A stretch of 64,000 bases of DNA from NCBI RefSeq assembly GCF_963921235.1, contig NC_086097.1:103976001-104040000 (forward strand), in the 5' to 3' direction. Position numbers and translations under genes: made by a program. This DNA is from Mobula hypostoma. Its lineage: Eukaryota. Of this stretch, positions 9,156-61,695 are shown in pieces (position 1 is the first letter of the stretch; each line of letters starts with the position of its first letter). The notes beneath the pieces were generated by a model. The model was not told the DNA's origin. It saw only the letters and a list, made by a program, of their open reading frames with translations, and searched no databases.

Positions 9156-12093
9156 TGTCACAAGGGGGGCGTTGGTGGCGGACCCAAATGCAAGACACAG
9201 ACAGTGAAGTACTAGGAGCAGGACTAGGTGTGTCAAGCAAACAAGGGAACTGGGGAAGAAACAACGCTGGACAAGACACAGGCCCTGGACGATGCTAGGA
9301 TACAGGGCCTGGACGAGGAACTAGGAACTTGGAACCCGGACAAGGACTCTGAGCTAGAGACCCAGAACCTGGGGCTTGACTTGGGCTCGGACCCCAGATC
9401 TAGACGAGGACAAGACATGGCTACAGGACGAGGAGTGGCAACAGGACTGGACGTGAGACTCCTGGACAGGACGGGGGAACCCCAGCACCGGGCTGGGTGA
9501 GGCACATGGATAGGACAAGAACACGATGTTTTGACTTGGTTGAGGGAGGACAGGAACGCAGAGCCTTGGTCGAGGGAGAACAGGGATGCAGAGCCTTGGT
9601 GGAGGGAGAACAGGAACATGGAACACAGATCCGGGACCCCACTTTGGGAACAGGACTTGGGGCTGGAGCTCTACACAGAGTCAGGCCCCTCCTAGGGTGC
9701 TGGGACTCATACACAGTATACAGAGACAGATCTCTACTTAAGGCAGCGGCAAACGTCTGGACCTACCCAGCAGAGGCAAGGGCACCAAGAGACGGTTCCC
9801 AACACAAGGTAGCAGCAAATGGACAGACCTACCTAGCGAAGGCGTGGACACAGAGACAGTTCCTAACTCAAGGTAGAGGCAAACGGCTGGACCTACCTAG
9901 CGAAGGCATGGACACAGAGACAGTTCCCAACTTAAGGTAGTGACAAATGGCCAGACCTACCTAGCGAAGGCGAGGACACAAAGAGACAGTTCCAAACAAC
10001 GATATACAGATCCTTATCTAGACACAGCAAGGCACCTGTCTTGCTCCGGTGGTAGAACTTGACAGCGATACAGATGAGGACACAGGCAAGGTTGTAGGCA
10101 AAGGCTTCAGGTGGAGGTTGCAGGCAAGGCTTCAGGCGGAAGTGTGCAGTTTTGGTCTCCAAATCTGAGGAAGGATATTCTTGCTATTGAGGGAGTACAG
10201 CGTAGGTTCACAAGGTTAATTCCCGGGATGGCAGGACTGTCATATGTTGAAAGATTGGAGCGACTGGGCTTGTATACTCTGGAATTTAGAAGGATGAGAG
10301 GGGATCTGATTGAAACATATAAGATTATTAAGGGATTGGACACGCTGGAGGCAGGAAGCATGTTCCCGCTGATGGGTGAGTCCAGAACCAGAGGCCACAG
10401 TTTAAGAATAAGGGGTAGGCCATTTAGAATGGAGTTGAGGAAAAACTTTCACCTAGAGAGTGGTGGATATGTGGAATGCTCTGCCCCAGAAGGCAGTGGA
10501 GGCCAAGTCTCTGGATGCTTTCAAGAAAGAGATGGATGGAGCTCTTAAAGATAGCGGAATCAAAGGTTATGGGGATAAGACAGGAACTGGATACTGATTG
10601 TGAATGATCAGCCATGATCACAGTGAATGGTGGTCCTGGCTCAAAGGGCTGAATGGCCTACTCCTGCACCTATTGTCTATTGAAGGGGACATAGGGGGAA
10701 CAGTCCAGCAACTGAAGCTGAACCTAGGAGCTATTTATGTAGCCGGCCCAAAATCAGAATCATGTGCCTCAATTAAGGCACACAACAGGACAAGGGAAAA
10801 CTGGAAAATCTGGAAATCAGATCGATGGACTGGACCATGAACTGGAATGCTGACTTCACGGACCGGACCAGACCATGATAGTATCTTCCCCATACGCCCC
10901 CCCCCCCCGTCCCGTGGGAGGCTCCTGGCAACCAAACAGGCTCTCCAGGACAAAGGACAACGCGGGTGGGTGGCGGGGCATTCAACAGGAGCCCAGGATG
11001 GCAAGAGTAAGACGACAGTGTCTGTGTTGCTGGGTCTATATTTGACTGGACTGTTCTGTCATAAGGGGGGAATTGGTGACAGACCCAAATGCAAGACACA
11101 GACAGTGAAGTACTAGGAATAGGACTAGGTGTGTCAAGCAAGTGGGGAAGAAATGACTCTGGACAAGACACAGGCCCTGGACGGGGCTAGGATACAGGGC
11201 CTGGGATAGGACTAGACTAGGAAAGTGGGACCTGAACGAGGAACTGGGAACTTGGAAACTGGACAAGGACTCTGAGCCAGAGACTGGACCGGGACCCGGA
11301 ACCTGGGTCTTGACTTGGGCTCGGACTCCAGATCTAGGCGAGGACAAGATGTGGCTACAAGACGAGGAGTGGCAACAGGACTGGATGTGAGATTCCTGGA
11401 CAGGATGAGACAACCTCAGCACCGGACCAGGTGAGGCACATGGACAGGACAAGAACACGAAGCCTTGACTTGGTCGAGGGAGAACAGGAGCATGGAATAC
11501 CAAGCCAGGACCCCTCCTTGGGAAAAGGTCTTGAGGCTGGGGCTCACCTCTGAGTCAGGATCCCTCCTAGGGAGCAGGATGTAGGGCCAGGACTCATACA
11601 CAGAATGCTGAGAGACAGATCTCCACTTAAGGTAGTGGCAAACAGCCGGACCTACCCAGCGAAGGCGAGGGCACCAAGAGATGGTTCACAACACAAAGTA
11701 GCGGCAAACGGCCAGACCTACCTAGCGAAGGTGAGGACACAAAGAGATAGTTGCAAACAACGATAGACAGTTCCTTATCTAGACACAGCAAGGCTCTGGT
11801 CTTGCTCCGGTGGTAGAACTTGACAGCGATACAGGTGAGGACGCGGACAAGGTTGCAGGCAAAGGCTTCAGGTGAGGGTTGCAGGCGAGGCTTCAGAAGG
11901 AAGGGGAAGTGGAGGGAACAGTCCAGCAACTGAAGCTGAACCCAGGAGCTATTTATGTAGCCAGCCCAAAATCAGAATCATGCGCCTCAATTAAGGCACA
12001 CAAGAGGACAAGGGAAAACTGGAAAACCTAGAATATGGATTGATGGACCAGACCATGAACCGGAATGCGGACCTCACGGACCGGACCATGACA
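9156..12093 (-). mobile_element. Non-autonomous two-LTR retroelement (LTRs 9156-10880 and 11057-12093; 176-bp internal region)
   Basis: TGTCA...TGACA termini. TSD AATGG at 9151-9155 and 12094-12098. Two similar ~1.0-1.2 kb direct repeats. G-rich PPT next to the 9156-10880 LTR on the minus strand. Confidence 0.88.
10143..10681 (+). mobile_element. CR1 3' fragment inserted in one LTR
   Basis: VQFWSP...LEFRRMRGDLIETYK. Flanked by GAAG at 10139-10142 and 10682-10685. Absent from the partner LTR. Confidence 0.88.
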
Positions 12094-14820: not shown

Positions 14821-17389
14821 ACAGAGCCTGCTGGCCCTGAAACTAGCAGGCATGAACTTCAGATTGCGGCCCTCGCCATTGATCTCGCCGGCTCCAACAC
14901 CTCAGGGCATATTCAAAACCCGGACTCCAGCAACGACCATGGACACATTCAAAGCGATTGCGCAACCACCAACTGTGACTCCAGCCTTGTACTCCAGGCC
15001 GGGTCTTTATGTGCTGCTGTTGTGACTCCTGTCTCCCCTCCCCCTACCACCACTCCGCAGCCCCGTCTTCCTCAGATCCCATCGTCAGCTCCTGGGCCCT
15101 CAGAGGCTCCATCTTCCTCTCACCCCAACCCTCCCCTCTCCACTGACACCCCCAGCCTCCCCCCTCCCCCCTCTGATCCCAGCTCTCATCCGTGCCGGGT
15201 CTTTACCATCCCCTCCGACCTTCAACTGTCGGAGGCAGAACGCTCTGTTCTCAGTAAGGGCCTCACGTTTGTTCCCCTTCGCCCACACCTCAGCGAGTTC
15301 CGTGTTCGCCATGATGCGGAACTTTTCTTCCGCCGTCTCTGTCTCCGAGCCTACTTCTTCGGCAAGGATTCTTCCACCCCCACCGATGACCCCTTCTCCC
15401 GTCTTCAACCCTCCTCTTCTTCATGGACACCCCGCTCTAGTCTTCTGCCTGCTCTGGATTTCTTTATCGCTAATTGCCGACGGGACATCAACCGTCTCGA
15501 CTTCACCGCACCTTGTCCCCATTCCAACCTCACTCCTTCGGAACGCTCTGCTCTCCACTCCCTCCGCACTAATCCTAACCTTATTATTAAACCCGCCGAT
15601 AAGGGGGGGTGCTGTTGTAGTCTGGCGTACTGACCTCTACCTTGCCGAGGCACAGCCACAACTCGCTGATACCTCCTCTTATTTACCCCTCGATCGTGAC
15701 CCCACTAAGGAGCATCAGGCCATTGTCTCCCACACCATCACCGACTTTATCCGCTCAGGGGATCTCCCATCCACTGCTACTAACCTTATAGTTCCCACAC
15801 CCGGCACTTCCCGTTTCTACCTCCTACCCAAGATCCACAAACCTGCCTGTCCTGGCCGACCTATTGTCTCAGCTTGCTCCTGCCCCACCGAACTCGTTTC
15901 TGCATACCTCAACACGGTTTTATCACCCCTTGTTCAATCCCTTCTGACCTATGTTCGTGACACTTCTCACGCTCTTAAACTTTTCAATGATTTTAAGTTC
16001 CCTGGCCCCCACCGCTTTATTTTCACCATGGACGTCCAGTCCTTATATACTTCCATCCCCCATCAGGATGGTCTCAAAGCTCTACGCTCCTTTTTGGATT
16101 CCAGACCTAATCAGTTCCCCTCTACCACCACTCTGCTCCGTCTAGCGGAATTAGTCCTTACTCTTAATAATTTCTCCTTTGGCTCCTCCCACTTCCTCCA
16201 AACTAAAGGTGTAGCTATGGGCACCCATATGGGTTCTAGCTATGCCTGCCTTTTTGTTGGGTTTGTGGAACAATCTATGTTCCGTGCCTATTCTGGTATC
16301 TGTCCCCCACTTTTCCTTCGCTACATCGACAACTGCATTGGCACTGCTTCCTGCACGCATGCAGAACTCATTGACTTTATTAACTTTGCCTCCAACTTTC
16401 ACCCTGCCCTCAAGTTTACCTGGTCCGTTTCCGACACCTCCCTCCCCTTTCTAGATCTTTCTGTCTCTGTCTCTGGAGACAGCTTATCCACTGATGTCTA
16501 CTATAAGCCTACTGACTCTCACAGCTATCTGGACTATTCCTCTTCTCACCCTGTCTCTTGCAAAAACGCCATCCCCTTCTCGCAATTCCTCCGTCTCTGC
16601 CGCATCTGCTCTCAGGATGAGGCTTTTCATTCTAGGACGAGGGAGATGTCTTCCTTTTTTAAAGAAAGGGGCTTCCCTTCCTCCACTATCAACTCTGCTC
16701 TTAAACGCATCTCCCCCATTTCACGTACATCTGCTCTCACTCCATCCTCCCGCCACCCCACTAGGAATAGGGTTCCCCTGGTCCTCACCTACCACCCCAC
16801 CAGCCTCCGGGTCCAACATATTATTCTCCGTAACTTCCGCCACCTCCAACAGGATCCCACCACTAAGCACATCTTTCCCTCCCTCCCTCTCTCTGCATTC
16901 CGCAGCGATCGCTCCCTACACAACTCCCTTGTCCATTCGTTCCCCCCATCCCTCCCCACTCATCTCCCTCCTGGCACTTATCCGTGTAAGCGGAACAAGT
17001 GCTACACATGCCCTTACACTTCCTCCCTTACCACCATTCAAGGCCCCAAACTGTCCTTCCAGGTGAGGCAACACTTCACCTGTGAGTCGACTGGGGTGAT
17101 ATACTGCGTCCGGTGCTCCCGATGTGGCCTTTTATATATTGGCGAGACCCGACGCAGACTGGGAGACCGCTTTGCTGAACATCTACGCTCTGTCCGCCAG
17201 AGAAAGCAGGATCTCCCAGTGGCCACACATTTTAATTCCACATCCCATTCCCATTCTGACATGTCTATCCACGGCCTCCTCTACTGTAAAGATGAAGCCA
17301 CACTCAGGTTGGAGGAACAACACCTTATATTCCGTCTGGGTAGCCTCCAACCTGATGGCATGAACATCGACTTCTCTAACTTCTGCTAA
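14821..17389 (+). pseudogene. PLE RT/GIY-YIG ORF with one frameshift and a YIDD>YIDN change
   Basis: Frame of ORF 15022-15633 (open from ~14812) joins the frame of 15269-17389 at a 7-G run at ~15603-15609. The RT catalytic motif reads RYIDN. Confidence 0.85.
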
Positions 17390-26670: not shown

Positions 26671-26704
26671 TCATCTTTGGCTCTTCACACAACACAGGAA
26701 TTGT

Positions 26705-26920
26705 GGTAGGATCAACCAGGGTAGGTCTTACACAGTGAATGGTAGGACCAATCAGGGGAGGTCTTACACAGTGAATGGTAGGACCAATCAGGAGAGGTCT
26801 TACACAGTGAACGGTACAACCAACCAGGGTAGGTCTTACACAGTGAACGGTAGGACCAATCACGGGAGGTCTTACACAGTGAATGGGAGGACCAGTCAGG
26901 GGAGGTCTTACACAGTGAAC
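26705..26920 (+). repeat. 36-bp tandem repeat x6 (GRTNQGRSYTVN)
   Basis: Units ggtaggaccaatcaggggaggtcttacacagtgaay start at 26705, 26741, 26777, 26813, 26849 and 26885. Confidence 0.92.
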
Positions 26921-27252
26921 AGTAGGGCTTTGAGGAGTGCGGTGAAACAAAGGGATCTGGGCATACAGGTCCACAATTCATTGAAAGTAGTGTCACAAGT
27001 AGATAGGGTCATAATGAAAGCTTTTGGCACGTTGGCCTTTATAAATCAAAGTCCTGAGTACAGGAGATGGCATGTTATGTTGAAATTGTATAAAACATTG
27101 GTGAGGCCCAATTTGGAGTACTGTGCACAGTTTTGGTCACTCACCTACAGGAGATATGTAAGTAAGGTTGAAAGAGTACACAGAAAATTTACAAGGATGT
27201 TGCCAGGCCTGGAGGACCTGAGGTATAAAGAAAGATTGAATAGGTTAGGTCT

Positions 27253-34900: not shown

Positions 34901-35787
34901 AGTTAGAGAACGTAACCCTACCAATTTCAGACTACACAGTAAATGAGGGAGAAGCAACACTCACAACACGCTGGAGGAACTCAGCAGGTCGGACAGCATC
35001 CATGGAAATGATCAGTCAACGTTTTGGGCTGGAACCCTTCGTCAGGACTGAAGAGGGAAAGGGCAGAGGCCCTATAAAGAAGGTGGTGGGAGGGTGGGAA
35101 GGAGAAGGCTGGTAGGAAAGGTGAAGAAGGAATAGGGGAAAACACAATGGGTAGTAGAAGGAGGCGGAACCATGAGGGAGGTAGTAGGCAACTAGGGGAG
35201 GGGCAGAGTGAAATAGGGATAGAGGAAGTGAGGGGGAGGGAATTATCGGAAATTGGAGAATTCTATGTTCATACCAAGGGGCTGGAGACTACCCAGACGG
35301 TATATGAGGTGTTGCTCCTCCAACCTGAGTTTAGCCTCATTATGGCAGTAGAGGAGGCCATGTATGGACATATCTGAATGGGAATGTGAAGCAGAGTTGA
35401 AGTGGGTGGCAACCAGGAGATCTTGTCTGTTGTGGTGGACGGAGCGGAGGTGCTCGACGAAGCGGTCCCCCAATCTGCGTCGGGTTTCACCGATGTACAG
35501 GAGGCCGCACCGGGAGCACCGGATGCAATAGATGGCCCCAACAGACTCACAAGTGAAGTGTTGCCTCACCTGGAAGGACTGTTTGGGGCCCTGAATGGTG
35601 GCAAGAGAGGAGGTGTAGGGACAGGTGTAGCACTTACGCTTACAGGGATAAGTGCCGGGTGGGAGATCCGTGGGGAGGGACATAGAAACATAGAAACATA
35701 GAAACATAGAAAATAGGTGCAGGAGTAGGCCATTCGGCCCTTCGAGCCTGCACCGCCATTTATTATGATCATGGCTGATCATCCAAC

Positions 35788-38787
35788 TCAGAACCCAGCC
35801 TTCCCTCCATACCCCCTGACCCCTGTAGCCACAAGGGCCATATCTAACTTCCTTTTAAACATAGCTAATGAACTGGCCTCAACAGTTTGCTGTGGCAGAG
35901 AATTCCACAGATTCACCACTCTCTGTGTGAAGAAGTTTTTCCTAACCTCGGTCCTAAAAGGCTTCCCCTCTATCCTCAAACTGTGACCCCTCGTTCTAGA
36001 CCTCCCCAACATCGGGAACAATCTTCCTGCATCTAGCCTGTCCAATCCCTTTAGGATCTTATACGTTTCAATCAGATCCCCCCTCAATCTTCTAAATTCC
36101 AACGAGTACAAGCCCAGTTCATCCAGTCTTTCTTCATATGAAAGACCTGCCATCCCAGGAATCAATCTGGTGAACCTTCTTTGTACTCCCTCTATGGCAA
36201 AGATGTCTTTCCTCAGATTAGGGGACCAAAACTGCACACAATACTCCAGGTGTGGTCTCACCAAGGCCTTGTACAACTGCAGTAGTACCTCCCTGCTCCT
36301 GTACTCGAATCCTCTCGCTATAAATGCCAGCATACCGTTCGCCTTTTTCACCGCCTGCTGTACCTGCATGCCCACTTTCAATGACTGGTGTATAATGACA
36401 CCCAGGTCTCGTTGCACCTCCCCTTTTCCTAATCGGCCACCATTCAGATAATAATCTGTTTTCCTATTTTTGCCACCAAAGTGGATACCTTCATATTTAT
36501 CCACATTAAATTGCATCTGCCATGAGTTTGCCCACTCACCCAACCTATCCAAGTCACCCTGCATCCTCTTAGCATCCTCCTCACTGCTAACACTGCCACC
36601 CAGCTTCGTGTCATCCGCAAACTTGGAGATGCTGCATTTAATTCCCTCATCCAAGTCATTAATATATATTGTAAACAACTGGGGTCCCAGCACTGAGCCT
36701 TGCGGTACCCCACTAGTCACCGCCTGCCATTCTGAAAAGGTCCCGTTTATTCCCACTCTTTGCTTCCTGTCTGCTAACCAATTCTCCACCCACACCAATA
36801 CCTTACCCCCAATACCGTGTGCTTTAAGTTTGCACACTAATCTCCTATGTGGGACCTTGTCAAAAGCCTTTTGAAAATCCAAATATACCACATCCACTGG
36901 TTCTCCCCTATCCACTCTACTAGTTACATCCTCAAAAAATTCTATGAGATTCGTCAGACATGATTTTCCTTTCACAAATCCATGCTGACTTTGTCCGATC
37001 ATTTCACCGCTTTCCAAATGTGCTGTTATCACATCCTTGATAACTGACTCCAGCAGTTTCCCCACCACCGACGTTAGGCTAACCGGCCTATAATTCCCCG
37101 GTTTCTCTCTCCCTCCTTTTTTAAAAAGTGGGGTTACATTAGCCACCCTCCAATCCTCAGGAACTAGTCCAGAATCTAACGAGTTTTGAAAAATTATCAC
37201 TAATGCATCCACTATTTCTTGGGCCACTTCCTTAAGCACTCTGGGATGCAGACCATCTGGCCCTGGGGATTTATCTGCCTTCAATCCCTTCAATTTACCT
37301 AACACCACTTCCCTACTAACATGTATTTCGCTCAGTTCCTCCATCTCACTGGACCCTCTGTCCCTTACTATTTCTGGAAGATTATTTATGTCCTCCTTAG
37401 TGAAGACAGAACCAAAGTAATTATTCAATTGGTCTGCCATGTCCTTGCTCCCCATAATCAATTCACCTGTTTCTGTTTGCAGGGGACCTACATTTGTCTT
37501 TATCAGTCTTTTCCTTTTTACATATCTATAAAAGCTTTTACAGTCCGTTTTTATGTTCTCTGCCAGTTTTCTCTCATAATCTTTTTTCCCCTTCCTAATT
37601 AAGCCCTTTGTCCTCCTCTGCTGAACTCTGAATTTCTCCCAGTCCTCAGGTGAGCCACTTTCTCTGGCTAATTTGTATGCTACTTCTTTGGAATTGATAC
37701 TATCCCTAATTTCTCTTGTCAGCCACGGGTGCACTACCTTCCTTGATTTATTCTTTTGCCAAACTGGGATGAACAATTGTTGTAGTTCATCCATGCAACC
37801 TTTAAATGCCTGCCATTGCATATCCACCGTCAATCCTTGAAGTGTCATTTGCCAGTCTATCTTAGCTAATTCATGTCTCATACCTTCAAAGTTACCCCTC
37901 TTTAAGTTCAGAACCTTTGTTTCTGAATTAACTACGTCACTCTCCATGTTAATGAAGAATTCCACCATATTATGGTCACTCTTACCCAAGGGGCCTCTCA
38001 CGACAAGATCGCTAATTAACCCTTCCTCATTGCTCAAAACCCAGTCCAGAATAGCCTGCTCTCTAGTCGGTTCCTCGACATGTTGGTTCAAAAAACCATC
38101 CCGCATACATTCCAAGAAATCCTCTTCCTCAGCACCTTTACCAATTTGGTTCACCCAGTCTACATGTAGATTGAAGTCACCCATTATAACTGCTGTTCCT
38201 TTATTGCACACATTTCTAATTTCCTGTTTAATACCATCTCCGACCTCACTACTACTGTTAGGTGGCCTGTACACAACTCCCACCAGCGTCTTCTGCCCCT
38301 TAGTGTTACGCAGCTCTACCCATATCGATTCCACATCTTCCCGGCTTATGTCCTTCCTTTCTATTGCGTTAATCTCTTTTTTAACCAGCAACGCCACCCC
38401 ACCTCCCCTTCCTTCGTGTCTATCCCTCCTGAATATTGAATATCCCTGAACGTTGAGCTCCCATCCCTGGTCACCCTGGAGCCATGTCTCTGTGATCCCA
38501 ACTATATCATAATCATTAATAACAATCTGCACTTTCAATTCATCCACCTTATTACGAATGCTCCTTGCATTGACACATAAAGCCTTCAGGCACTCTTTTA
38601 CAACTCTCTTAGCCCTTTTTAATGCTTGCCCTGGATTTGTCGGCCTGCCACTTTTACTTTTCCCCTTTGTACTTTTTGCTTCTACGCTCACTTTACACCC
38701 CTCTGTCTCTCTGCACTGGTTCCCATCCCTCTGTTGTGAACTAACCTCCTCACACCTAGCCGCTTTAATTTGATTCCCACCCCCCAA
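35788..38787 (-). CDS. CR1 ORF2 (APE endonuclease + reverse transcriptase), 999 aa
   Basis: [49 protein letters not shown]. No stops. The true start codon is uncertain. Confidence 0.95.
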   Translation of the reverse strand: MGGGNQIKAARCEEVSSQQRDGNQCRETEGCKVSVEAKSTKGKSKSGRPTNPGQALKRAKRVVKECLKALCVNARSIRNKVDELKVQIVINDYDIVGITETWLQGDQGWELNVQGYSIFRRDRHEGRGGGVALLVKKEINAIERKDISREDVESIWVELRNTKGQKTLVGVVYRPPNSSSEVGDGIKQEIRNVCNKGTAVIMGDFNLHVDWVNQIGKGAEEEDFLECMRDGFLNQHVEEPTREQAILDWVLSNEEGLISDLVVRGPLGKSDHNMVEFFINMESDVVNSETKVLNLKRGNFEGMRHELAKIDWQMTLQGLTVDMQWQAFKGCMDELQQLFIPVWQKNKSRKVVHPWLTREIRDSINSKEVAYKLARESGSPEDWEKFRVQQRRTKGLIRKGKKDYERKLAENIKTDCKSFYRYVKRKRLIKTNVGPLQTETGELIMGSKDMADQLNNYFGSVFTKEDINNLPEIVRDRGSSEMEELSEIHVSREVVLGKLKGLKADKSPGPDGLHPRVLKEVAQEIVDALVIIFQNSLDSGLVPEDWRVANVTPLFKKGGREKPGNYRPVSLTSVVGKLLESVIKDVITAHLESGEMIGQSQHGFVKGKSCLTNLIEFFEDVTSRVDRGEPVDVVYLDFQKAFDKVPHRRLVCKLKAHGIGGKVLVWVENWLADRKQRVGINGTFSEWQAVTSGVPQGSVLGPQLFTIYINDLDEGIKCSISKFADDTKLGGSVSSEEDAKRMQGDLDRLGEWANSWQMQFNVDKYEGIHFGGKNRKTDYYLNGGRLGKGEVQRDLGVIIHQSLKVGMQVQQAVKKANGMLAFIARGFEYRSREVLLQLYKALVRPHLEYCVQFWSPNLRKDIFAIEGVQRRFTRLIPGMAGLSYEERLDELGLYSLEFRRLRGDLIETYKILKGLDRLDAGRLFPMLGRSRTRGHSLRIEGKPFRTEVRKNFFTQRVVNLWNSLPQQTVEASSLAMFKRKLDMALVATGVRGYGGKAGF

Positions 38788-38792
38788 CCATT

Positions 38793-39785
38793 CTAGTTTA
38801 AAGTCACCTCAGTAGCCCCCGCTAATCTCCCTGCCAGGATATTGGTCCCCCGAGGATTTAAGTGTAACCCGTCCTTTTTGTACAGGTCACACCTGCGCCA
38901 AAAGAGGTCCCAATGATCCAAAAACTTGAATCCCTGCCCCCTGCTCCAATCCCTCAGCCACGCATTTATCCTCCACCTCATCGCATTCCTACTCTCACTG
39001 TCGCGTGGCACAGGCAGTAATCCCGAGATTACTACCTTTGCGGTCCTTTTTCTCAACTCCCTTCCTAGCTCCCTATATTCTTCTTTCAGGACCTCATCCC
39101 TTTTCCTACCTATGTCATTGGTACCTATATGTACCAGGACCTCTGGCTCTTCACCCTCCCACTTCAGGATATCTTGGACACGATCAGAAATATCCCGGAC
39201 CCTGGCACCAGGGAGGCAAACTACCATCCGAGTCTCTGGACTGCGTCCACAGAATCGCCTATCTGACCCCCTTACTATCGAGTCCCCTATCACAACTGCC
39301 CTCCTCTTCCTTGCCCTACCCTTCTGAGCTACAGGGCCAGACTCTGTGCCGGAGGCAGGGCCACTGTCGCTTCCCCCGGGTAAGCTGTCCCCCCCAACAG
39401 TACTCAAACAGGAGTACCTGTTGTTAAGGGGCACAGCCGCCGGGGTACTCCCCATCACCTTCCTTTTCCCCTTCCCCCTCCTAACCGTGACCCACTTGTC
39501 TGCCTCCCGTGGCCCCGGCGTGACCACCTGCCTTCCACTCCTCTCTATCACCTCCTCACTCTCCCTGACCAGACGAAGGTCATCGAGCTGCAGCTCCAGT
39601 TCCGTAACGCGGTCCCTTAGGAGCTGCATCTCGATGCACTTGGCGCAGATGTAGACGTCCGGGAGGCTTGGAGACTCCAGGGCCTCCCACATCCGACACC
39701 GAGAACAGCAAACTGCCCTCACAGTCATAATGCCCCTCTCCTCAAATAGCAACAGAAAATGAATGTCAAACCTTCCTCGCCTCAC
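38793..39785 (-). CDS. CR1 ORF1 (Cys zinc finger, leucine zipper, SGNH esterase)
   Basis: CSRC...CAKC; LRDRVTELELQLDDLR; GDSIVRG, HIGTND, DGLHLN. Confidence 0.92.
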   Translation of the reverse strand: MRRGRFDIHFLLLFEERGIMTVRAVCCSRCRMWEALESPSLPDVYICAKCIEMQLLRDRVTELELQLDDLRLVRESEEVIERSGRQVVTPGPREADKWVTVRRGKGKRKVMGSTPAAVPLNNRYSCLSTVGGDSLPGGSDSGPASGTESGPVAQKGRARKRRAVVIGDSIVRGSDRRFCGRSPETRMVVCLPGARVRDISDRVQDILKWEGEEPEVLVHIGTNDIGRKRDEVLKEEYRELGRELRKRTAKVVISGLLPVPRDSESRNAMRWRINAWLRDWSRGQGFKFLDHWDLFWRRCDLYKKDGLHLNPRGTNILAGRLAGATEVTLN

Positions 39786-39890
39786 CCGCTTCCGCCTAAG
39801 CCCGGTGAGCCGAAGCCCTTAAGTCTTCACTCTGCTCCCGGCTCACTCCGCCGCCCGCAAACTACGCTGCCCGCTCTATGAGGCTCTGTT

Positions 39891-40388
39891 CCTTTTAAAT
39901 CTGCCGCGCTGCACTGCCCTACGTCACACGCCTGCGCAGTCCCGCCTCTCAGAAAGCCGTTGGAGAAAAAAAAATAACGAAAATTTCAAAAATCTCTTTT
40001 TCGGCACTCCCACTCAGACTCTCAGACTCCTTCTTCGAATCAAATCCGAAGCAGGATGTCTGCCCTTTTAAATCTGCCGCGCTGCACTGCCCGACGTCAC
40101 ACGCCTGCGCAGTCCCGCCTCTCAGAAAGCCGTTGGAGAAAAAAAAATAACGAAAATTTCAAAAATCTCTTTTTCGGCACTCCCACTCAGACTCTCAGAC
40201 TCCTTCTTCGAATCAAATCCGAAGCAGGATGTCTGCCCTTTTAAATCTGCCGCGCTGCACTGCCCGACGTCACACGCCTGCGCAGTCCCGCCTCTCAGAA
40301 AGCCGTTGGAGAAAAAAAAAAATAACGAAAATTTCAAAAATCTCTTTTTCGGCACTCCCACTCAGACTCTCAGACTCCTTCTTCGAAT
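39891..40388 (-). repeat. ~173-bp tandem monomers x~2.9 at the CR1 5' end
   Basis: Near-identical units start at 39891, 40064 and 40237 (plus-strand coordinates). Confidence 0.95.
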
Positions 40389-41023
40389 GTGGACATGTGG
40401 ACCAGGGATTCACGGAGGGACCGATCCCTGCGGAAAGCGGAGAGGGGTGGAGAGGGAAAGATGTGCTTAGTGGTGGGGTCCTGTTGAAGGTGGCGGAAGT
40501 TGCGGAGGATAATGTGCTGGATCTGGAGGCTGGTGGGATGGTAGGTGAGGACAAGGGGAACTCTGTCCCTGTTGTGGTGACGGAGGATGGGGTGAGGGCT
40601 GAAGTGCGGGAAATGGAGGAGATGCGGGTGAGGGCATCATTGATGACAGCAGAAGGGAAACCACGATCCTTAAAGAAAGAGGACATTTGAGATGTCCTGG
40701 AACGGAAAGCCTCATCCGGGGAGCAGATGCGGCGGAGATGGAGGAACTGGGAATAGGGAATCGCATATTTGCATGTGACAGGGTGGGATGAGGTATAGTC
40801 GAGGTAGTTATGAGAGTCAGTGGGCTTGTAGAAGATGTCAGTGGACAGTCTGTCTCCAGAGATGGAGACCGAGAGATCGAGAAAGGGGAGAGAAGTGTCC
40901 GAGATAGACCAAGTGAATTTGAGGGCTGGGTGAAATTGACAAGCTCAGCATGGGTGCAGGAAGCAGCACCAACGTAGTCGTCAATGTAGCGAAGGAAAAA
41001 GTTGGGGAGCAGTACCAGTATAG

Positions 41024-42474
41024 TCATAGTCATAGTCATACTTTATTGATCCCGGGGGAAATTGGTTTTCATTACAGTTGCACCATAAATAATAAATAGT
41101 AATAACACCATAAATAGTTAAATAGTAATATGTAAATTATGCCAGGAAATAAGTCCAGGACCAGCCTGTTGGCTCAGGGTGTCTGACCCTCCAAGGGAGG
41201 AGTTGTAAAGTTTGATGGCCACAGGCAGGAATGACTTCCTGTGACGCTCTGTGTTGCATCTCGTTGGAGTGAGTCTCTGGCTGAATGTACTTCTGTGCCC
41301 AACTAGTACATTATGTAGTGGATGGGAGACATTGTCCAAGATGGCATGCAACTTGGACAGCATCCTCTTTCACCATCAGAGAGTCCAGTTCCATCCCCAC
41401 AACATCACTGGCCTTACGAATGAGTTTGTTGATTCTGTTGGTGTCTGCTACCCACAGCCTGCTGCCCCAGCACACAACAGCAAACATGATAGCTCTGGCC
41501 ACCACAGACTTGTAGAACATCCTCAGCGTCATCTGGCAGATGTTAAAGGACCTCAGTCTCCTCAGGAAATAGAGACGGCTCTGACCCTTCTTGTAGACAG
41601 CCTCAGTGTTCTTTGACCAGTCCCGTTTATTGTCAATTCGTATCCCCAGGTATTTGTAATCCTCCACCATGTCCACACTGACCCCCTGGATGGAAACAGG
41701 AGTCACCGGTGCCTTAGCCCTCCTCAGGTCTACCACTAGCTCCTTAGTCTTTTTCACATTAAGCTGCAGATAATTCTGCTCACACCATGTGACAAAGTTT
41801 CCTACCGTAGCCTTGTACTCAGCCTCATCTCCCTTGCTTTTGCATCCAACTATGGCAGAGCCATCAGAAAACTTCTGAAGATGACAAGACTCTGTGCAGT
41901 AGTTGAAGTCCGAGGTGTATATGGTGAAGAGAAAGGGAGACAAGACAGTCCCCTGTGGAGCCCCAGTGCTGGTGATCACTCTGTCGGACACACAGTGTTG
42001 CAAGCACACGTACTGTGGTCTGCCAGTCAGGTAATCAAGAATCCATGACACCAGGAAAGCATCCACCAGCATCGCTGTCAGCTTCTCCCCCAGCAGAGCA
42101 GGGCGGATGGTGTTGAATGCACTGGAGAAGTCAAAAAACATGACCCTCACAGAGCTCGCTGGCTTGTCCAGGTGGGCATAGACATGGTTCAGCAGGTAGA
42201 CGATGGCATCCTCAACTCCTAGACGGGGCTGGTAGGTGAACTGGAGGGGATCTAAGTGTGACCTGACCATGGGCCGGAGCAGCTCCAGAACAAGTCTCTC
42301 CAGGGTCTTCATGATGTGGGAGGTCAATGCCACTGGTCTGTAGTCATTGAGACCACTGGGGCGCGGCATCTTTGGCACAGGGACGAGGCAGGATGTCTTC
42401 CACAGCACAGCAACCCTCCGGAGCCTCAGGCTCAGGTTGAATACATGGCGAAGTACTCCACATAGCTGTGGGTC
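41024..42474 (-). mobile_element. Rex1/Babar LINE, 5'-truncated, inserted in the PLE
   Basis: NDYRPVALTSHIMKTLERL, DFSSAFNTI, TGAPQGTVLSPFLF. (ACTATG)n tail. ATAG duplicated at 41020-41023 and 42475-42478. Confidence 0.92.
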
Positions 42475-45199
42475 ATAGGTTTGGAGCATAGACTGTTCCA
42501 GATAACCAACAAAGAGGCAGGCATAGCTGGGGCCCATGCGAGTGCCCATAGCTACACCATTGGTCTGAAGAAAGTGGGAAGAGCCAAAAGAGAAGTTATT
42601 AAGTGTGAGTACCAGTTCTGCCAACTGGAGGAGGGTAGTGGTGGTGGGGAACTGGTGAGGTCTGTTGTCCAGAAGTAGCAGAGGGCTTTGAGGCCTTCTT
42701 AATGGGGAATGGAGGTGTATAAGGATTGGACATCCATAGTGAAAATGAAGCGGTCGGGACCGGGGAACTGGAAGTTATTGAAGAGGTGGAGGGCATGGGA
42801 TGTATCCCGGATGTAGGTGGGGAGGGACTGAACTATGGGTGACAAAGTGGAGTCCAGGTAGGCAGATACAAGTTCGGTGGGACAGGAGCAGGCAGAAGCT
42901 ATGGGTCTACCGGGACAGTCAGGCTTGTGGATCTTGGGGGAGGAGGTAAAACCAAGCGGTACGGGGTGTGGGAATTATAAGTTTAGCGGCTGAGGATGGA
43001 AGGTCTCTGGAGCTGATGAGGGCGGTGATGGTACGGGAGGGAATGGTTTGATGTTTCTTGGTGGGGTCCTGTTCCAGGGGTAACCTAAGAGGAGGTGTCA
43101 GAGAGCTGCCGTTTGCCCTCAGTGAGGTAGAGGTCCGTCCGCCAGACTACTACAGCGTTACCTTTGTCTGCGGGTTTGATGGTGAGGTTGGGATTAGTGC
43201 GGAGAGAGTGGAGGGCAGTGCATTCAGGGGGAGTTAGGTTGGAACAGGCGAGAGGAGTGGTGAAGTGGAGACGGTTGATGTGTCGGCGACATGAGGGAGA
43301 AAATGGCTGTGAAAAGAAGTGGAAGATTTTTAAATATTTAAATCAGTTAAAGCGTGTTTATTTGATTTGGTTTTTAGTTTCTTTTAAGTAATGTTTCTGT
43401 TTTCTGTAATTGAATATGTTTGGATGTCAAAGACAGTGTGAAACAATCAAACAGTAAGAGCTTTGACAGCTAGTGAGGCCACAAAACACTTTAATGAACA
43501 CCCATTAATCCAGAGACCCATGGTCAATTTTAATTTCAGTTTATTATTTGGAACATGTAAAAAGACATGATGACCACATAAAACATCTGTCTGGTTTGCT
43601 GATGTCCAAGGGCAAGGAACCCTACTCTTCTCCTCATTCTGACGCAAGTGTGACTCTGAAATGACTCTCTGAAATGATCCAGCAAGCTACTCAGTCCAAT
43701 GGCATGTAGGGATGGCCAATAAATGCCAGTTTAAATAACAGAGCAGGAATTCTAAGTTCCAGTAAGACACTGCAGTCAGGTCAAACTATGAGTGCGGTTT
43801 CCCTGTCAAGTTCAAGAGCTGGTGCTCAGCAGTTCCAACATGTTCAGACACTCCTGTGTCCCTTCTACACTATGTGTGCCCAAGGTTTGGAAGTCTGTCT
43901 GTGTCTAAAATCTGAGGCTGAAGTCCAGGGAATTATAAAGCGACTGGCTTCATGTCAGTGTGAGGAAAGTTTACTCAAAGATGTGATAGAAAAAAATTCC
44001 TGCAATTGGAAATATGATGAAGAGCAATTGTGCCATTTCTAAAGGCAGGTCATACTCTGTTGGGATATTTAAACCAGTAACAAAATTATCAAGGAAATGC
44101 AGTAATTGGAATTTATTTTAATGTTCAGTAGGCCTCTGACTGGAGAACACCACATGCACATCTGAAGGCTGAGTGTGTAAAGTTAGTGGGAGGAGCAGAT
44201 CAAAAGCTCCCTACAAAACAGAAAAAAAAAGTAATTGAAGGTTTTGGGTTGGTTTCTTAGGCAGGCAAATGAAGTAGAAGTGGTGTCCCACAGCGAGTGG
44301 AAGTGGTGACCCAATGAGGTCAATGAACACCTCAATATACAGTGTGAGGAAGGAATTTAGTTCCTGTCTGAGAGTTGAGAAAAAGTTGACATCAGCATTA
44401 CTGTACCAGACATTGTGCAAAGTTCAAAGTAAATTTATTATCAAAGTACGTATATGTTACCATCTGCTATCTCGAGATTCATTTTCCTGCAAGCATTTAA
44501 AAGAAATATGATTGAAACTATGAAAAACCATACAGAAACAAAGACTGACAAATAACAATGTGCAAAAGACAAACCATGCAAATAAAAAAAATAATACTGA
44601 GATCATAAGCTGCAAGAGGTCGTAAGATCGATTTGGAGTTTTGGTAGTTGAATTTATCCATGCTGGTTCAGGAGCATGATATTGTAAGGTAAGGCTGTAA
44701 GGAGCCTAAGGCTTCTGTAGCTCCTGTCTGATGGCAGCAGCAAGAACAGAGCATGGCCTGGATGTTGGGGGTGTTTCTTGTGCCAGCACTCCAGGTAAAT
44801 GTACTCAATTCGTGCACATTCAGCTGCAGCTGTCTGGTGAGGTGGAAAAAGTATGGTCAACTGGATGCTAATAAAAAGAGGAACCATTCCTCTTGTTCCA
44901 CTCCCCTGTATTTAGTCACACTTCAAGTCAGGACAACGCTTTTTCTGCAGCACTTTTTACCATTTCAGGAGATACAAAAGCATTTCACAGCCAAGGAAAT
45001 ACAAACCAAACGTTGCTCGTTTGGCGGGGGGGGGGGGGGAGGCATGGAGGCGTGGAGACGGAGAGGTCTGTGCAGAGTGAAAGCTATTTGAAAACAACAA
45101 AGTCTCACTGGGAGTCACACTTTGGAGTAGCAAGAGAGAGCAAGATCTGTGCAGAGTGAGAGTCATTAAGAACAAGTCCAGCTGGGAAGTGAGTCTCAG

Positions 45200-49654: not shown

Positions 49655-51990
49655 AACTGAAGGAAGAGTGAGTAAGGGATTTGAAAGTTGGAGGGGGAGG
49701 GGGAGATCCAAAATGATAGGAGAAGACAGGAGGGGGAGGGATAGAGCCAAGAGCTGGACAGGTGATAGGCAAAAGGGGATACGAGAGGATCATGGGACAG
49801 GAGGTCCGGGAAGAAAGACAAGGAGGGGTGGGGACCCAGAGGATGGGCAAGAGGTATATGCAGAGGGACAGAGGGAGAAAAAGGAGAGTGAGAGAAAGAA
49901 TGTGTGCATAAAAATAAGTAACAGATGGGGTACGAGGGGGAGGTGGGGCCTTAGCGGAAGTTAGAGAAGTCGATGTTCATGCCACCAGGTTGGAGGCTAC
50001 CCAGACGGAATATAAGGTGTTGTTCCTCCAACCTGAGTGTGGCTTCATCTTTACAGTAGAGGAGGCCGTGGATAGACATGTCAGAATGGGAATGGGATGT
50101 GGAATTAAAATGTGTGGCCACTGGGAGATCCTGCTTTCTCTGGCGGACAGAGCGTAGATGTTCAGCAAAGCGGTCTCCCAGTCTGCGTCGGGTCTCGCCA
50201 ATATATAAAAGGCCACATCGGGTGCACCGGACGCAGTATATCACCCCAGTCGACTCACAGGTGAAGTGTTGCCTCACCTGGAAGGACTGTTTGGGGCCCT
50301 GAATGGTAGTAAGGGAGGAAGTGTAAGGGCATGTGTAGCACTTGTTCCGCTTACACGGATAAGTGCCAGGAGGGAGATCAGTGGGGAGGGATGGGGGGGA
50401 CGAATGGACAAGGGAGTTGCGTAGGGAGCAATCCCTGCGGAATGCAGGGGGGGGAGGGAAAGATGTGCTTAGTGGTGGGATCCTGTTGGAGGTGGCGGAA
50501 GTTACGGAGAATATGTTGGACCCGGAGGCTGGTGGGGTGGTAGGTGAGGACCAGGGGAACCCCATTCCTAGTGGGGTGGTGGGAGGATGGAGTGAGAGCA
50601 GATGTACGTGAAATGGGGGAGATGCGTTTAAGAGCAGAGTTGATAGTGGAGGAAGGGAAGCCCCTTTCTTTAAAAAAGGAAGACATCTCCCTCGTCCTAG
50701 AATGAAAAGCCTCATCCTGAGAGCAGATGCGGCGGAGACAGAGGAATTGTGAGAAGGGGATGGCGTTTTTGCAAGAGACAGGGTGAGAAGAGGAATAGTC
50801 CAGATAGCTGTGAGAGTCAGTAGGCTTATAGTAGACATCAGTGGATAAGCTGTCTCCAGAGACAGAGACAGAAAGATCTAGAAAGGGGAGGGAGGTGTCG
50901 GAAGTGGACCAGGTAAACTTGAGGGCAGGGTGAAAGTTGGAGGCAAAGTTAATAAAGTCAACGAGTTCTGCATGCGTGCAGGAAGCAGCGCCAATGCAGT
51001 CGTCGATGTAGCGAAGGAAAAGTGGGGGACAGATACCAGAATAGGCACGGAACATAGATTGTTCCACAAACCCAACAAAAAGGCAGGCATAGCTAGGACC
51101 CATACGGGTGCCCACAGCTACACCATTAGTTTGGAGGAAGTGGGAGGAGCCAAAGGAGAAATTATTAAGAGTAAGGACTAATTCCGCTAGACGGAGCAGA
51201 GTGGTGGTAGAGGGGAACTGATTAGGTCTGGAATCCAAAAAGAAGCGTAGAGCTTTGAGACCTTCCTGATGGGGGATGGAAGTATATAAGGACTGGACAT
51301 CCATGGTGAAAATAAAGTGGTGGGGGCCAGGGAACTTAAAATCATCGAAAAGTTTAAGAGTGTGAGAAGTGTCACGAACATAGGTCGGAAAGGATTGAAC
51401 AAGGGGTGTTAAAACTGTGTCAAGGTATGCAGAAATGAGTTCGGTGGGGCAGGAGCAAGCTGAGACAATAGGTCGGCTATAGACCGCTTTGCTGAACATC
51501 TACGCTCTGTCCGCCAGAGAAAGTAAGATCTCCCAGTGGCCACACATTTTAATTCCACATCCCATTCCCATTCTGACATGTCTATCCACGGCCTCCTCTA
51601 CTGTAAAGATGAAGCCACACTCAGGTTGGAGGAACAACACCTTATATTCCGTCTGGGTAGCCTCCAACCTGATGGCATGAACATCGACTTCTCTAACTTC
51701 CACTAAGGCCCCACCTCCCCCTCGTACCCCATCTGTTACTTATTTTTATGCACACATTCTTTCTCTCACTCTCTTTTTTCTCCCTCTGAATATACCTCTT
51801 GCCCATCCTCAGGGTCCCCCCCCCCGTCTTTCTTCCCGGACCTCCTGTCCCATGATCCTCTCGTATCCCCTTTTGCCTATCACCTGTCCAGCTCTTGGCT
51901 CTATCCCTCCCCCTCCTGTCTTCTCCTATCATTTTGGATCTCCCTCTCCCCCTCCAACTTTCAAATCCCTTACTCACTCTTCCTTCAGTT

Positions 51991-61199: not shown

Positions 61200-61695
61200 T
61201 GGAAGAAAGAAAAAGGGGGGAGGGAGGGAGGAGCACCAGAGGGTGGGAGGAGATAAGGTGAGAAAGGGAAAAGGGGATGGGAACTGGTGAAGGCGATGGG
61301 GTGTGGGGCATTACCAGAAGTTTAAGAAATCAATGTTGAGAAATCAAACTTCCAGTAATGCCCCCCACCCCCTTTTACCATTTCCTATCCCCTTTTCACT
61401 CTCTCACCTTATCTCCTTGCCTGCTCATTGCCTCCCTCTGGTGCTCTTCCCCATTTTCTTTGTTTCATGGCATTCTGTCTCTTTCACCAATCAACTTCAC
61501 AGCTCTTTACCTCACCCCTCCCGGTTTCACCTATCACCTGGTGTTTCTCTCTCCCCTCCCTCCACCTTTTAAATCTACTCCTCAGCTTTATTTTCTCCAG
61601 TCCTGCCAAAGGGTTTTGGCCAGAAACATCAACTATATTTTTTTCCATAGATGCTGCTTGTCCTGCTGAGTTCCTCCAGCATTTTGTGTGTGTTG
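61200..61695. mobile_element. Old PLE 3' ends in back-to-back inverted arrangement
   Basis: 61200-61325 is the approximate reverse complement of 61350-61450. Decayed hammerhead and tail at 61599-61695. Confidence 0.65.

Follow-up and report, generated by a model that had tools for sequence, protein, structure and literature searches.

Tandem 5' monomers are described for mouse L1 elements (L1Md A, Tf and Gf), in which CpG-rich units of about 200 bp precede a unique tether (10.1101/2022.08.06.500894; PMC6454616; PMC9022269). According to the portions of these sources used here, 5' ends of mouse L1 cluster at one place of the monomer and daughter copies carry 0.6-1.8 fewer monomers. Template switching, mispriming or unequal crossing-over are proposed for the regain of monomers, its mechanism being regarded as unsettled (10.1101/2022.08.06.500894; PMC6454616). 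Transcription starts are broad and lie near YY1 or AP-1 sites (PMC6454616; PMC5381506). The term TATA is absent from these two papers, and an inverted linker in mouse L1 is not described in the sections of the literature that were compared.

A different organization is reported for Drosophila HeT-A and for the pseudo-LTR of Penelope. In the part of the source used here, an upstream copy drives the downstream copy and regeneration needs tandems; the Penelope promoter that was tested is TATA-less and internal (PMC2377424). The CR1 array analysed in this work is similar in that its predicted promoter, as judged from motifs, lies upstream of the start in the preceding repeat. However, in HeT-A and Penelope a whole or truncated element supplies the upstream unit with its 3' end, whereas the CR1 unit is a 173-bp 5'UTR repeat within one dispersed insertion. 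Blastn against the window (the whole 64-kb stretch of DNA analysed) matched the monomer to the array only and not to the 3' end of the element, which sets it apart from HeT-A and Penelope.

The A-module of the Dictyostelium element TRE5-A occurs in tandem copies. This 5' module of 200 bp, belonging to a non-LTR element of other clade and host, shows promoter activity (PMC3159450) and is cited as an internal promoter (PMC2881922), as far as the sections of these papers covered here go. Among CR1 elements, 5'UTRs are often replaced, and turtle (PsCR1) and pufferfish CR1 have been described as carrying 32-bp direct repeats with E-boxes (PMC2734521, in part). The element analysed here shares esterase ORF1, APE-RT ORF2 and short repeat tail with vertebrate CR1 (chicken CR1-B/F, turtle, pufferfish). 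In the portions of the vertebrate CR1 literature covered, no monomer array of 150-200 bp, TATA phasing or hairpin linker was found, and the corresponding portions of PMC11702581 and PMC1513397 contain nothing on monomers. Papers on CR1 elements with a monomer array that is phased to a TATA box or joined by an inverted linker were likewise not found among those of the largely open-access library searched.

Similarly to mouse L1, the array consists of tandem CpG-rich monomers of 150-250 bp followed by a unique tether, and it is common to many copies of the family. Unlike mouse L1, the element is a CR1 and not a member of the L1 clade (esterase ORF1, 8-bp repeat tail, no poly(A)), its geometry is that of a predicted upstream TATA-type promoter, and its joint is a hairpin. 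It resembles the mouse L1 array in its presumed working and HeT-A in its geometry, and belongs to neither family. Loss and regain of monomers (mouse L1) and promoting in tandem (HeT-A, Penelope) are already known; new here is the linker between monomers, which repeats the monomer start in inverted orientation and forms a hairpin.

The CR1 element and its insertion site

The element is a full-length, intact CR1 LINE of 4.7 kb, located on the minus strand at 40388-35681. Both its reading frames are open. ORF1 (38793..39728, minus strand, 311 aa) consists of a Cys-rich N-terminus, a coiled-coil-like stretch and an SGNH/GDSL esterase domain; the esterase was identified by profile match (PF13472, E 3e-16) and the N-terminal Cys-rich finger by direct reading. 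The ORF2 frame (35788..38808, minus strand, 1006 codons) is stop-free and contains APE endonuclease (PF03372/PF14529 at 93-282) and reverse transcriptase (PF00078 at 566-780) with their motifs present. No further domain family was detected in ORF2, RNase H and C-terminal endonuclease included. The short 3'UTR (35681..35787, minus strand) ends in an 8-bp repeat tail, (TTTCTATG)n, of period 8 and 4.8 copies at 35680-35716; poly(A) is absent. Upstream of ORF1, a non-repeated, tether-like 5'UTR of 162 nt (39729..39890, minus strand) separates the reading frames from the array. The whole leader of 660 nt is free of ATG; when one monomer and the unique part were shuffled, 2.6% of 3000 shuffles had 0 ATG.

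A search for ORF1 relatives gave 74 hits among 3555 candidates, and the named top ones come from rays and sharks. The closest is a protein labelled Mobula hypostoma (99% identical), followed among named proteins by those of skate and stingray. From its domains and repeat tail we assign the element as a young, intact batoid CR1-type LINE. It may resemble HER1. HER1 is the named shark and ray LINE partner of the HE1 SINE (PMC3747384, in the part covered). One ORF1 relative with 60% identity (P0020, on a contig of 4159 bases) is labelled Pseudomonas aeruginosa; this label is probably due to host contamination or mislabelling.

Two minor features of the element deserve mention. At the overlap of ORF1 and ORF2 lies a T TTA AAC heptamer (38796..38802, minus strand), where a -1 slip yields ORF2 F-K-L-E-W; in the ORF2 frame, Met first occurs at residue 209, within the endonuclease. 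As its sequence suggests, the heptamer is a candidate programmed -1 frameshift site, and no strong structure is found in the 80 nt downstream of it. The unique 5'UTR contains a perfect 8-bp inverted repeat (39805-39846), in a region that folds no better than shuffles (z -0.43).

CR1 is inserted within a Penelope element. Comparison by tblastn with the Penelope ORF at 15026-17386 places one part of this host upstream of CR1 (40389..40944, minus strand) and the other, with the GIY-YIG end, downstream (35249..35680, minus strand); the protein alignment halts at residue 637 and restarts at 642 across CR1. Likeness to the monomer ends at 40388, with host Penelope beyond, and the 5' end of CR1 at 40388 is defined to about 2 nt, since AT microhomology with the target may exist there. 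No target-site duplication could be established: ATGTCC (6 bp) with 2 extra bases fits, and a join with target loss of 4 nt fits as well. Blastn of the element against the window detected other CR1 pieces (approximately 64-88% identical), none of which has a monomer. The same host Penelope is also interrupted upstream, at about 41040-42670 (minus strand), by a second LINE fragment with RT, an ALKBH8_N hit and a 6-bp repeat tail; it thus holds two nested insertions.

Monomers, motifs and the inverted linker

TRF detects a single array, at 39891-40388, with period 173, 2.9 copies and 99% matches. Read on the minus strand, it is composed of monomer 1 (40214..40388, 175 nt including the linker), which opens with the element's 5' end at 40388, monomer 2 (40041..40213, 173 nt including the linker) and monomer 3 (39891..40040, 150 nt). 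Monomers 1 and 2 differ solely in the length of a T-run (12 and 10, respectively). Monomer 3 has one near-private substitution, at 39920, and stops after a TATA-like box, so that the 23-nt linker is missing. CpG o/e is 0.9-1.16 in the array versus 0.16-0.63 in the body of the element, which we count in favour of promoting in tandem, the reading preferred below.

The sequence ATTCGAAG has its first base at 40388, 40213 and 40040; the TATA-like TTTAAAAG has its first T at 40245, 40072 and 39899 (all minus strand). At both internal joints, the distance from this T to the next ATTCGAAG is 32 nt (40245 to 40213 and 40072 to 40040). A fourth GATTTAAAAGG in the window, at 61575, was dropped, as the sequence surrounding it is unrelated. 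Relative to the next ATTCGAAG, a GC-box lies at -79, an NRF1-like motif at -71, a CRE half-site at -59 and the TATA-like box at -32. The predicted cluster of GC-box, NRF1-like motif and CRE half-site occupies 40094..40119 in monomer 2, and 40267-40292 and 39921-39946 in monomers 1 and 3; the TATA-like box is at 40065..40072 in monomer 2, with other copies at 40238-40245 and 39892-39899 (all minus strand). The four motifs are named as putative binding sites after general consensus patterns. The initial annotation had described an intact CR1 with tandem 173-bp 5' monomers, each bearing these four motifs, a 32-nt phase at the internal joints and an element that begins at ATTCGAAG. All of this holds on reanalysis, the last point to within about 2 nt.

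Monomer 2 was shuffled 2000 times with dinucleotides preserved; individually, the motifs occurred in 6.8%, 6.0%, 4.2% and 3.7%, and all four jointly in 0 of 2000, by a test that is post hoc. They crowd at -79 to -25 before the next monomer start and are found nowhere else on the sense strand of the monomer, whose first 90 nt contain none of the four tested patterns. Some features count against a TATA reading. With at most one mismatch the TATA-like 8-mer is commonplace (267 of 738 window tiles), the box TTTAAAAG itself has one mismatch, and the -1/+1 pair is G|A instead of the usual pyrimidine/purine initiator. For the last monomer, TATA+32 is 39867, in the unique 5'UTR; copies without monomers starting at about 39867, as this last box predicts, were absent among the loose ends listed (24 of 674) in the sequencing runs described below.

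The 23-nt linker, which follows the TATA-like box and precedes the next monomer, repeats the first 18 nt of this monomer imperfectly and in inverted orientation, an observation added here to those of the initial annotation. Linker and inverted monomer start are identical at 16 of 19 positions, which is matched by 1 of 20000 shuffles. An apparent resemblance between the linker and the beginning of the unique UTR was rejected as not significant, since 19081 of 20000 shuffles score equally well. Junction hairpin 2 (40023..40062, minus strand) has 17 bp and -20.8 kcal/mol as RNA. Its 5' arm is the linker (40062-40044), its loop has 3 nt (40043-40041) and its 3' arm (40040-40023) is formed by the first 18 nt of monomer 3. 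Junction hairpin 1 (40196..40235, minus strand) has identical letters, one period upstream. The fold is stronger than expected (z -4.45, 0 of 200 shuffles) on a 45-nt piece, with z of -2.4 to -2.6 on longer pieces, and as DNA both strands fold too. The last joint, which is free of the linker, shows no unusual fold (z 0.70).

The loop lies directly 5' of ATTCGAAG, and the element's 5' end is at the apex. Since TATA+32 and the hairpin apex coincide at this end, the phase also fits a hairpin or snap-back origin. For R2 insertions, snap-back synthesis is reported in the part of the source used: before formation of the 5' joint, the cDNA serves as template for its own 3' end, which acts as primer (PMC11204384). 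Snap-back on the element's 5' end would leave an inverted copy like the linker, and most likely the linker arose in this way at the 5' end of an RNA that already began with ATTCGAAG. If so, the ATTCGAAG end predates the present linker and its 32-nt spacing, which again counts against the TATA reading. Rfam search of 35600-40500 at E <= 1 gave no ribozyme match above noise, its 2 matches lying far below gathering scores; among Rfam families, no HDV-like or hammerhead 5' ribozyme fold was recognised there.

The array in other samples

The stretch or a part of it is contained in contigs of 20 of the 23 public runs, which belong to 6 studies. Four runs from four studies and with three organism labels were compared: X1 and X7 (organism A), X9 (B) and X18 (C). 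X1 is possibly the source sample; X7, X9 and X18 are different samples and studies. The segment used for comparison, 39450-40063, includes one monomer and its linker.

The tandem joint, at which 40063 is followed by 39891 (173 nt back), is present in all four runs (A, A, B, C). In X1, 6 junction contigs have changed or extra letters. Depth in X7 is 233 for the joint contig, 243 for a unique-UTR contig and 2.7-5.5 for divergent contigs. The tandem array is a trait of the family, and the possibility raised at the outset, that it is unique to this locus or an artefact of assembly, is contradicted by the joint in all four runs. Ratios of monomer to unique-UTR depth (1.21, 1.75, 1.25 and 0.96) were left unused, as they are not copy numbers.

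At positions 40000, 39994 and 39955, the window letter is lacking or in the minority in B and C; in A, both letters are found. The other letter has depths of 263091/263091, 278364/283612 and 145375/151874 in X9, and of 59.3/59.3, 59.3/63.3 and 117/133 in X18; these are among the 40 of 151 differences listed, and depths are not allele counts. All three monomers of the window have the same letter at each of these positions. Since B and C possess the joint and the window monomers share their letters, the array is older than the differences and has been homogenised since, one origin being assumed. The array turns over within the family.

A random placement of 5' ends within the monomer had been named by the initial annotation as evidence against its reading; the loose ends listed do not refute that reading. 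Two X7 contigs have loose ends exactly at 40040, with unrelated flanks (median 255 letters) whose agreement of 0.65 is about the value given by two unrelated flanks. Their consensus matches the flank of this copy at 10 of 30 positions and the linker at 7 of 30, i.e. neither, so at least one of the two contigs represents another locus. Three 5' ends at a monomer start are thus at hand, namely this copy and the two X7 contigs, one of which is possibly this locus. For two ends at the pre-named 40040 among 38-76 partly placed contigs, P is 0.002-0.03 by a crude uniform model. Against clustering counts one X7 loose end within the monomer, at 39974, among those listed. In X1, X9 and X18 there is none at 40040 among the 6 loose ends listed for each, those listed being 24 of 674 overall. 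No places with many loose ends are tabulated across the four runs.

One X18 contig crosses 40040 and reaches 40057. The fall of summed depth beyond 40037 was rejected as 5'-end evidence, as depth falls similarly at the far edge of the stretch. In X9, skips of 204 and 74 nt (39821 and 39951, respectively, to 40026) occur in one contig each and share their end, in the 3' arm of the hairpin; 5 nt at 40021 are missing from 9 contigs. These skips and losses may be microhomology deletions or template switches. Scans of metagenome, prokaryotic genome and viral contigs with exact patterns and ORF1 gave nothing usable, and 5 viral loci that match a 17-19-nt pattern alone were dropped as chance.

Proposed promoting in tandem and its alternatives

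Promoting in tandem from TATA-type promoters, with loss and regain of monomers, is the reading that we prefer and hold to be moderately probable; it is from the sequences that we infer promoter activity, start site, loss per round and route of regain. The 3' half of the monomer, with its GC-box, NRF1-like motif, CRE half-site and TATA-like box, would function as an upstream-type promoter for RNA polymerase II, and transcription would begin at or beside ATTCGAAG of the following monomer. A copy of n monomers would then give rise to RNA and daughters with at most n-1. Because the linker is present at internal joints only, RNA needs two monomers, i.e. one joint, to carry it, and a three-monomer donor is therefore the smallest one that renews itself; three is the number present here. 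Monomers might be regained by unequal exchange, or when reverse transcriptase switches template from one monomer start to another. The linker most likely arose when snap-back at the ATTCGAAG end of RNA was succeeded by a jump that landed directly after the TATA box, and its hairpin may still promote template switches.

This bears on two claims made in the initial annotation. Transcription from a further-upstream monomer agrees with the phase, the family-wide array and its turnover, but the hairpin apex explains the phase as well. That one monomer is spent per round and regained by duplication agrees with the turnover observed, but the idea of loss and regain is already published for mouse L1. 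Taken together, the best explanation is that this CR1 family carries a putative self-renewing 5' promoter array. In a bolder version, which we consider speculative and rather improbable, the family would follow an LTR-like promoter cycle without LTRs. An external TATA promoter in each monomer would place the start at the next one and so cost one monomer per round, the linker would be a strand-transfer signal that restores monomers in the same round, and it would also preserve, as a scar of snap-back, a trace of the event that founded the array; the inverted linker would cause reverse transcriptase to release and re-enter at monomer starts.

Alternatively, each monomer might start RNA at its own first bases by means of downstream elements, as in mouse L1 or Dictyostelium TRE5-A. 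No monomer need then be spent if the outermost one is used, the linker would be a snap-back fossil at an older 5' end, and the TATA-like motif would either be irrelevant to the start or serve a shorter RNA from about 39867. Internal promoters are the rule for most characterised LINE 5'UTRs (PMC2881922), chicken CR1 included (PMC2734521), according to the portions of these papers covered. The linker inverts the first 18 nt, the result expected of snap-back on a 5' end that already existed, and a TATA-like box has a chance of about 6% to fall in a 10-nt window of a 173-nt unit. On the contrary, all four motifs sit 95-150 nt downstream of the monomer start, at canonical upstream spacing to the next one, the first 90 nt are devoid of them, and turnover of the array is expected if monomers are spent. 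Such an internal promoter is in our view unlikely.

Slightly more doubtful still is the possibility that the 5' end is set by the hairpin and not by a promoter, transcripts reading through the array from upstream. After copying of the 3' arm, the re-formed RNA hairpin would eject the end of cDNA at its apex, or its loop would be cut; copies would thus begin at ATTCGAAG, and the freed end might switch monomers, with loss or gain. The loop directly 5' of ATTCGAAG and the strength of the fold (-20.8 kcal/mol, z -4.45, 0 of 200 shuffles) agree with this mechanism, as do the folding of both DNA strands and its lack at the last, linker-less joint (z 0.70), but under it both the TATA-like box at -32 and the motif cluster would be coincidental, and no Rfam ribozyme matches at E <= 1. 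A local duplication or assembly artefact, or else a neutral array whose 5' end came to a monomer start by random truncation, is very unlikely. One full copy was read and one X7 loose end falls inside the monomer, which would suit it; against it stand the joint in all four runs, with three organism labels, four studies and several variant forms, the two contigs that end on the same base, and the homogenised lineage-specific letters.

How monomeric promoters of LINEs are lost and regained is described as unsettled for mouse L1, whose starts are diffuse (PMC6454616, in the portion covered). In a family such as this CR1, a base-exact monomer start, near-identical monomers, lineage-specific marker letters and a readable joint would make loss, regain and homogenisation countable from genome copies and testable with simple reporters. 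If promoting in tandem is true, the monomer solution together with an upstream TATA-type promoter, otherwise a trait of LTR elements, would have arisen independently in the CR1 clade.

Several other repeats of the window were noted. A nearly intact Penelope ORF of 787 codons with a GIY-YIG end lies at 15026-17389 (plus strand), and a close, frameshifted relative of it at 49957-51487 (minus strand). Just upstream of a CR1 3' fragment, 9535-10149 is a cluster of tandem repeats with periods of 30, 64/130 and 25. At 26704-26926, a 36-bp tandem array of 6.2 copies, with a CCAAT-like motif in each unit, is in frame in a decayed CR1 ORF2 fragment.
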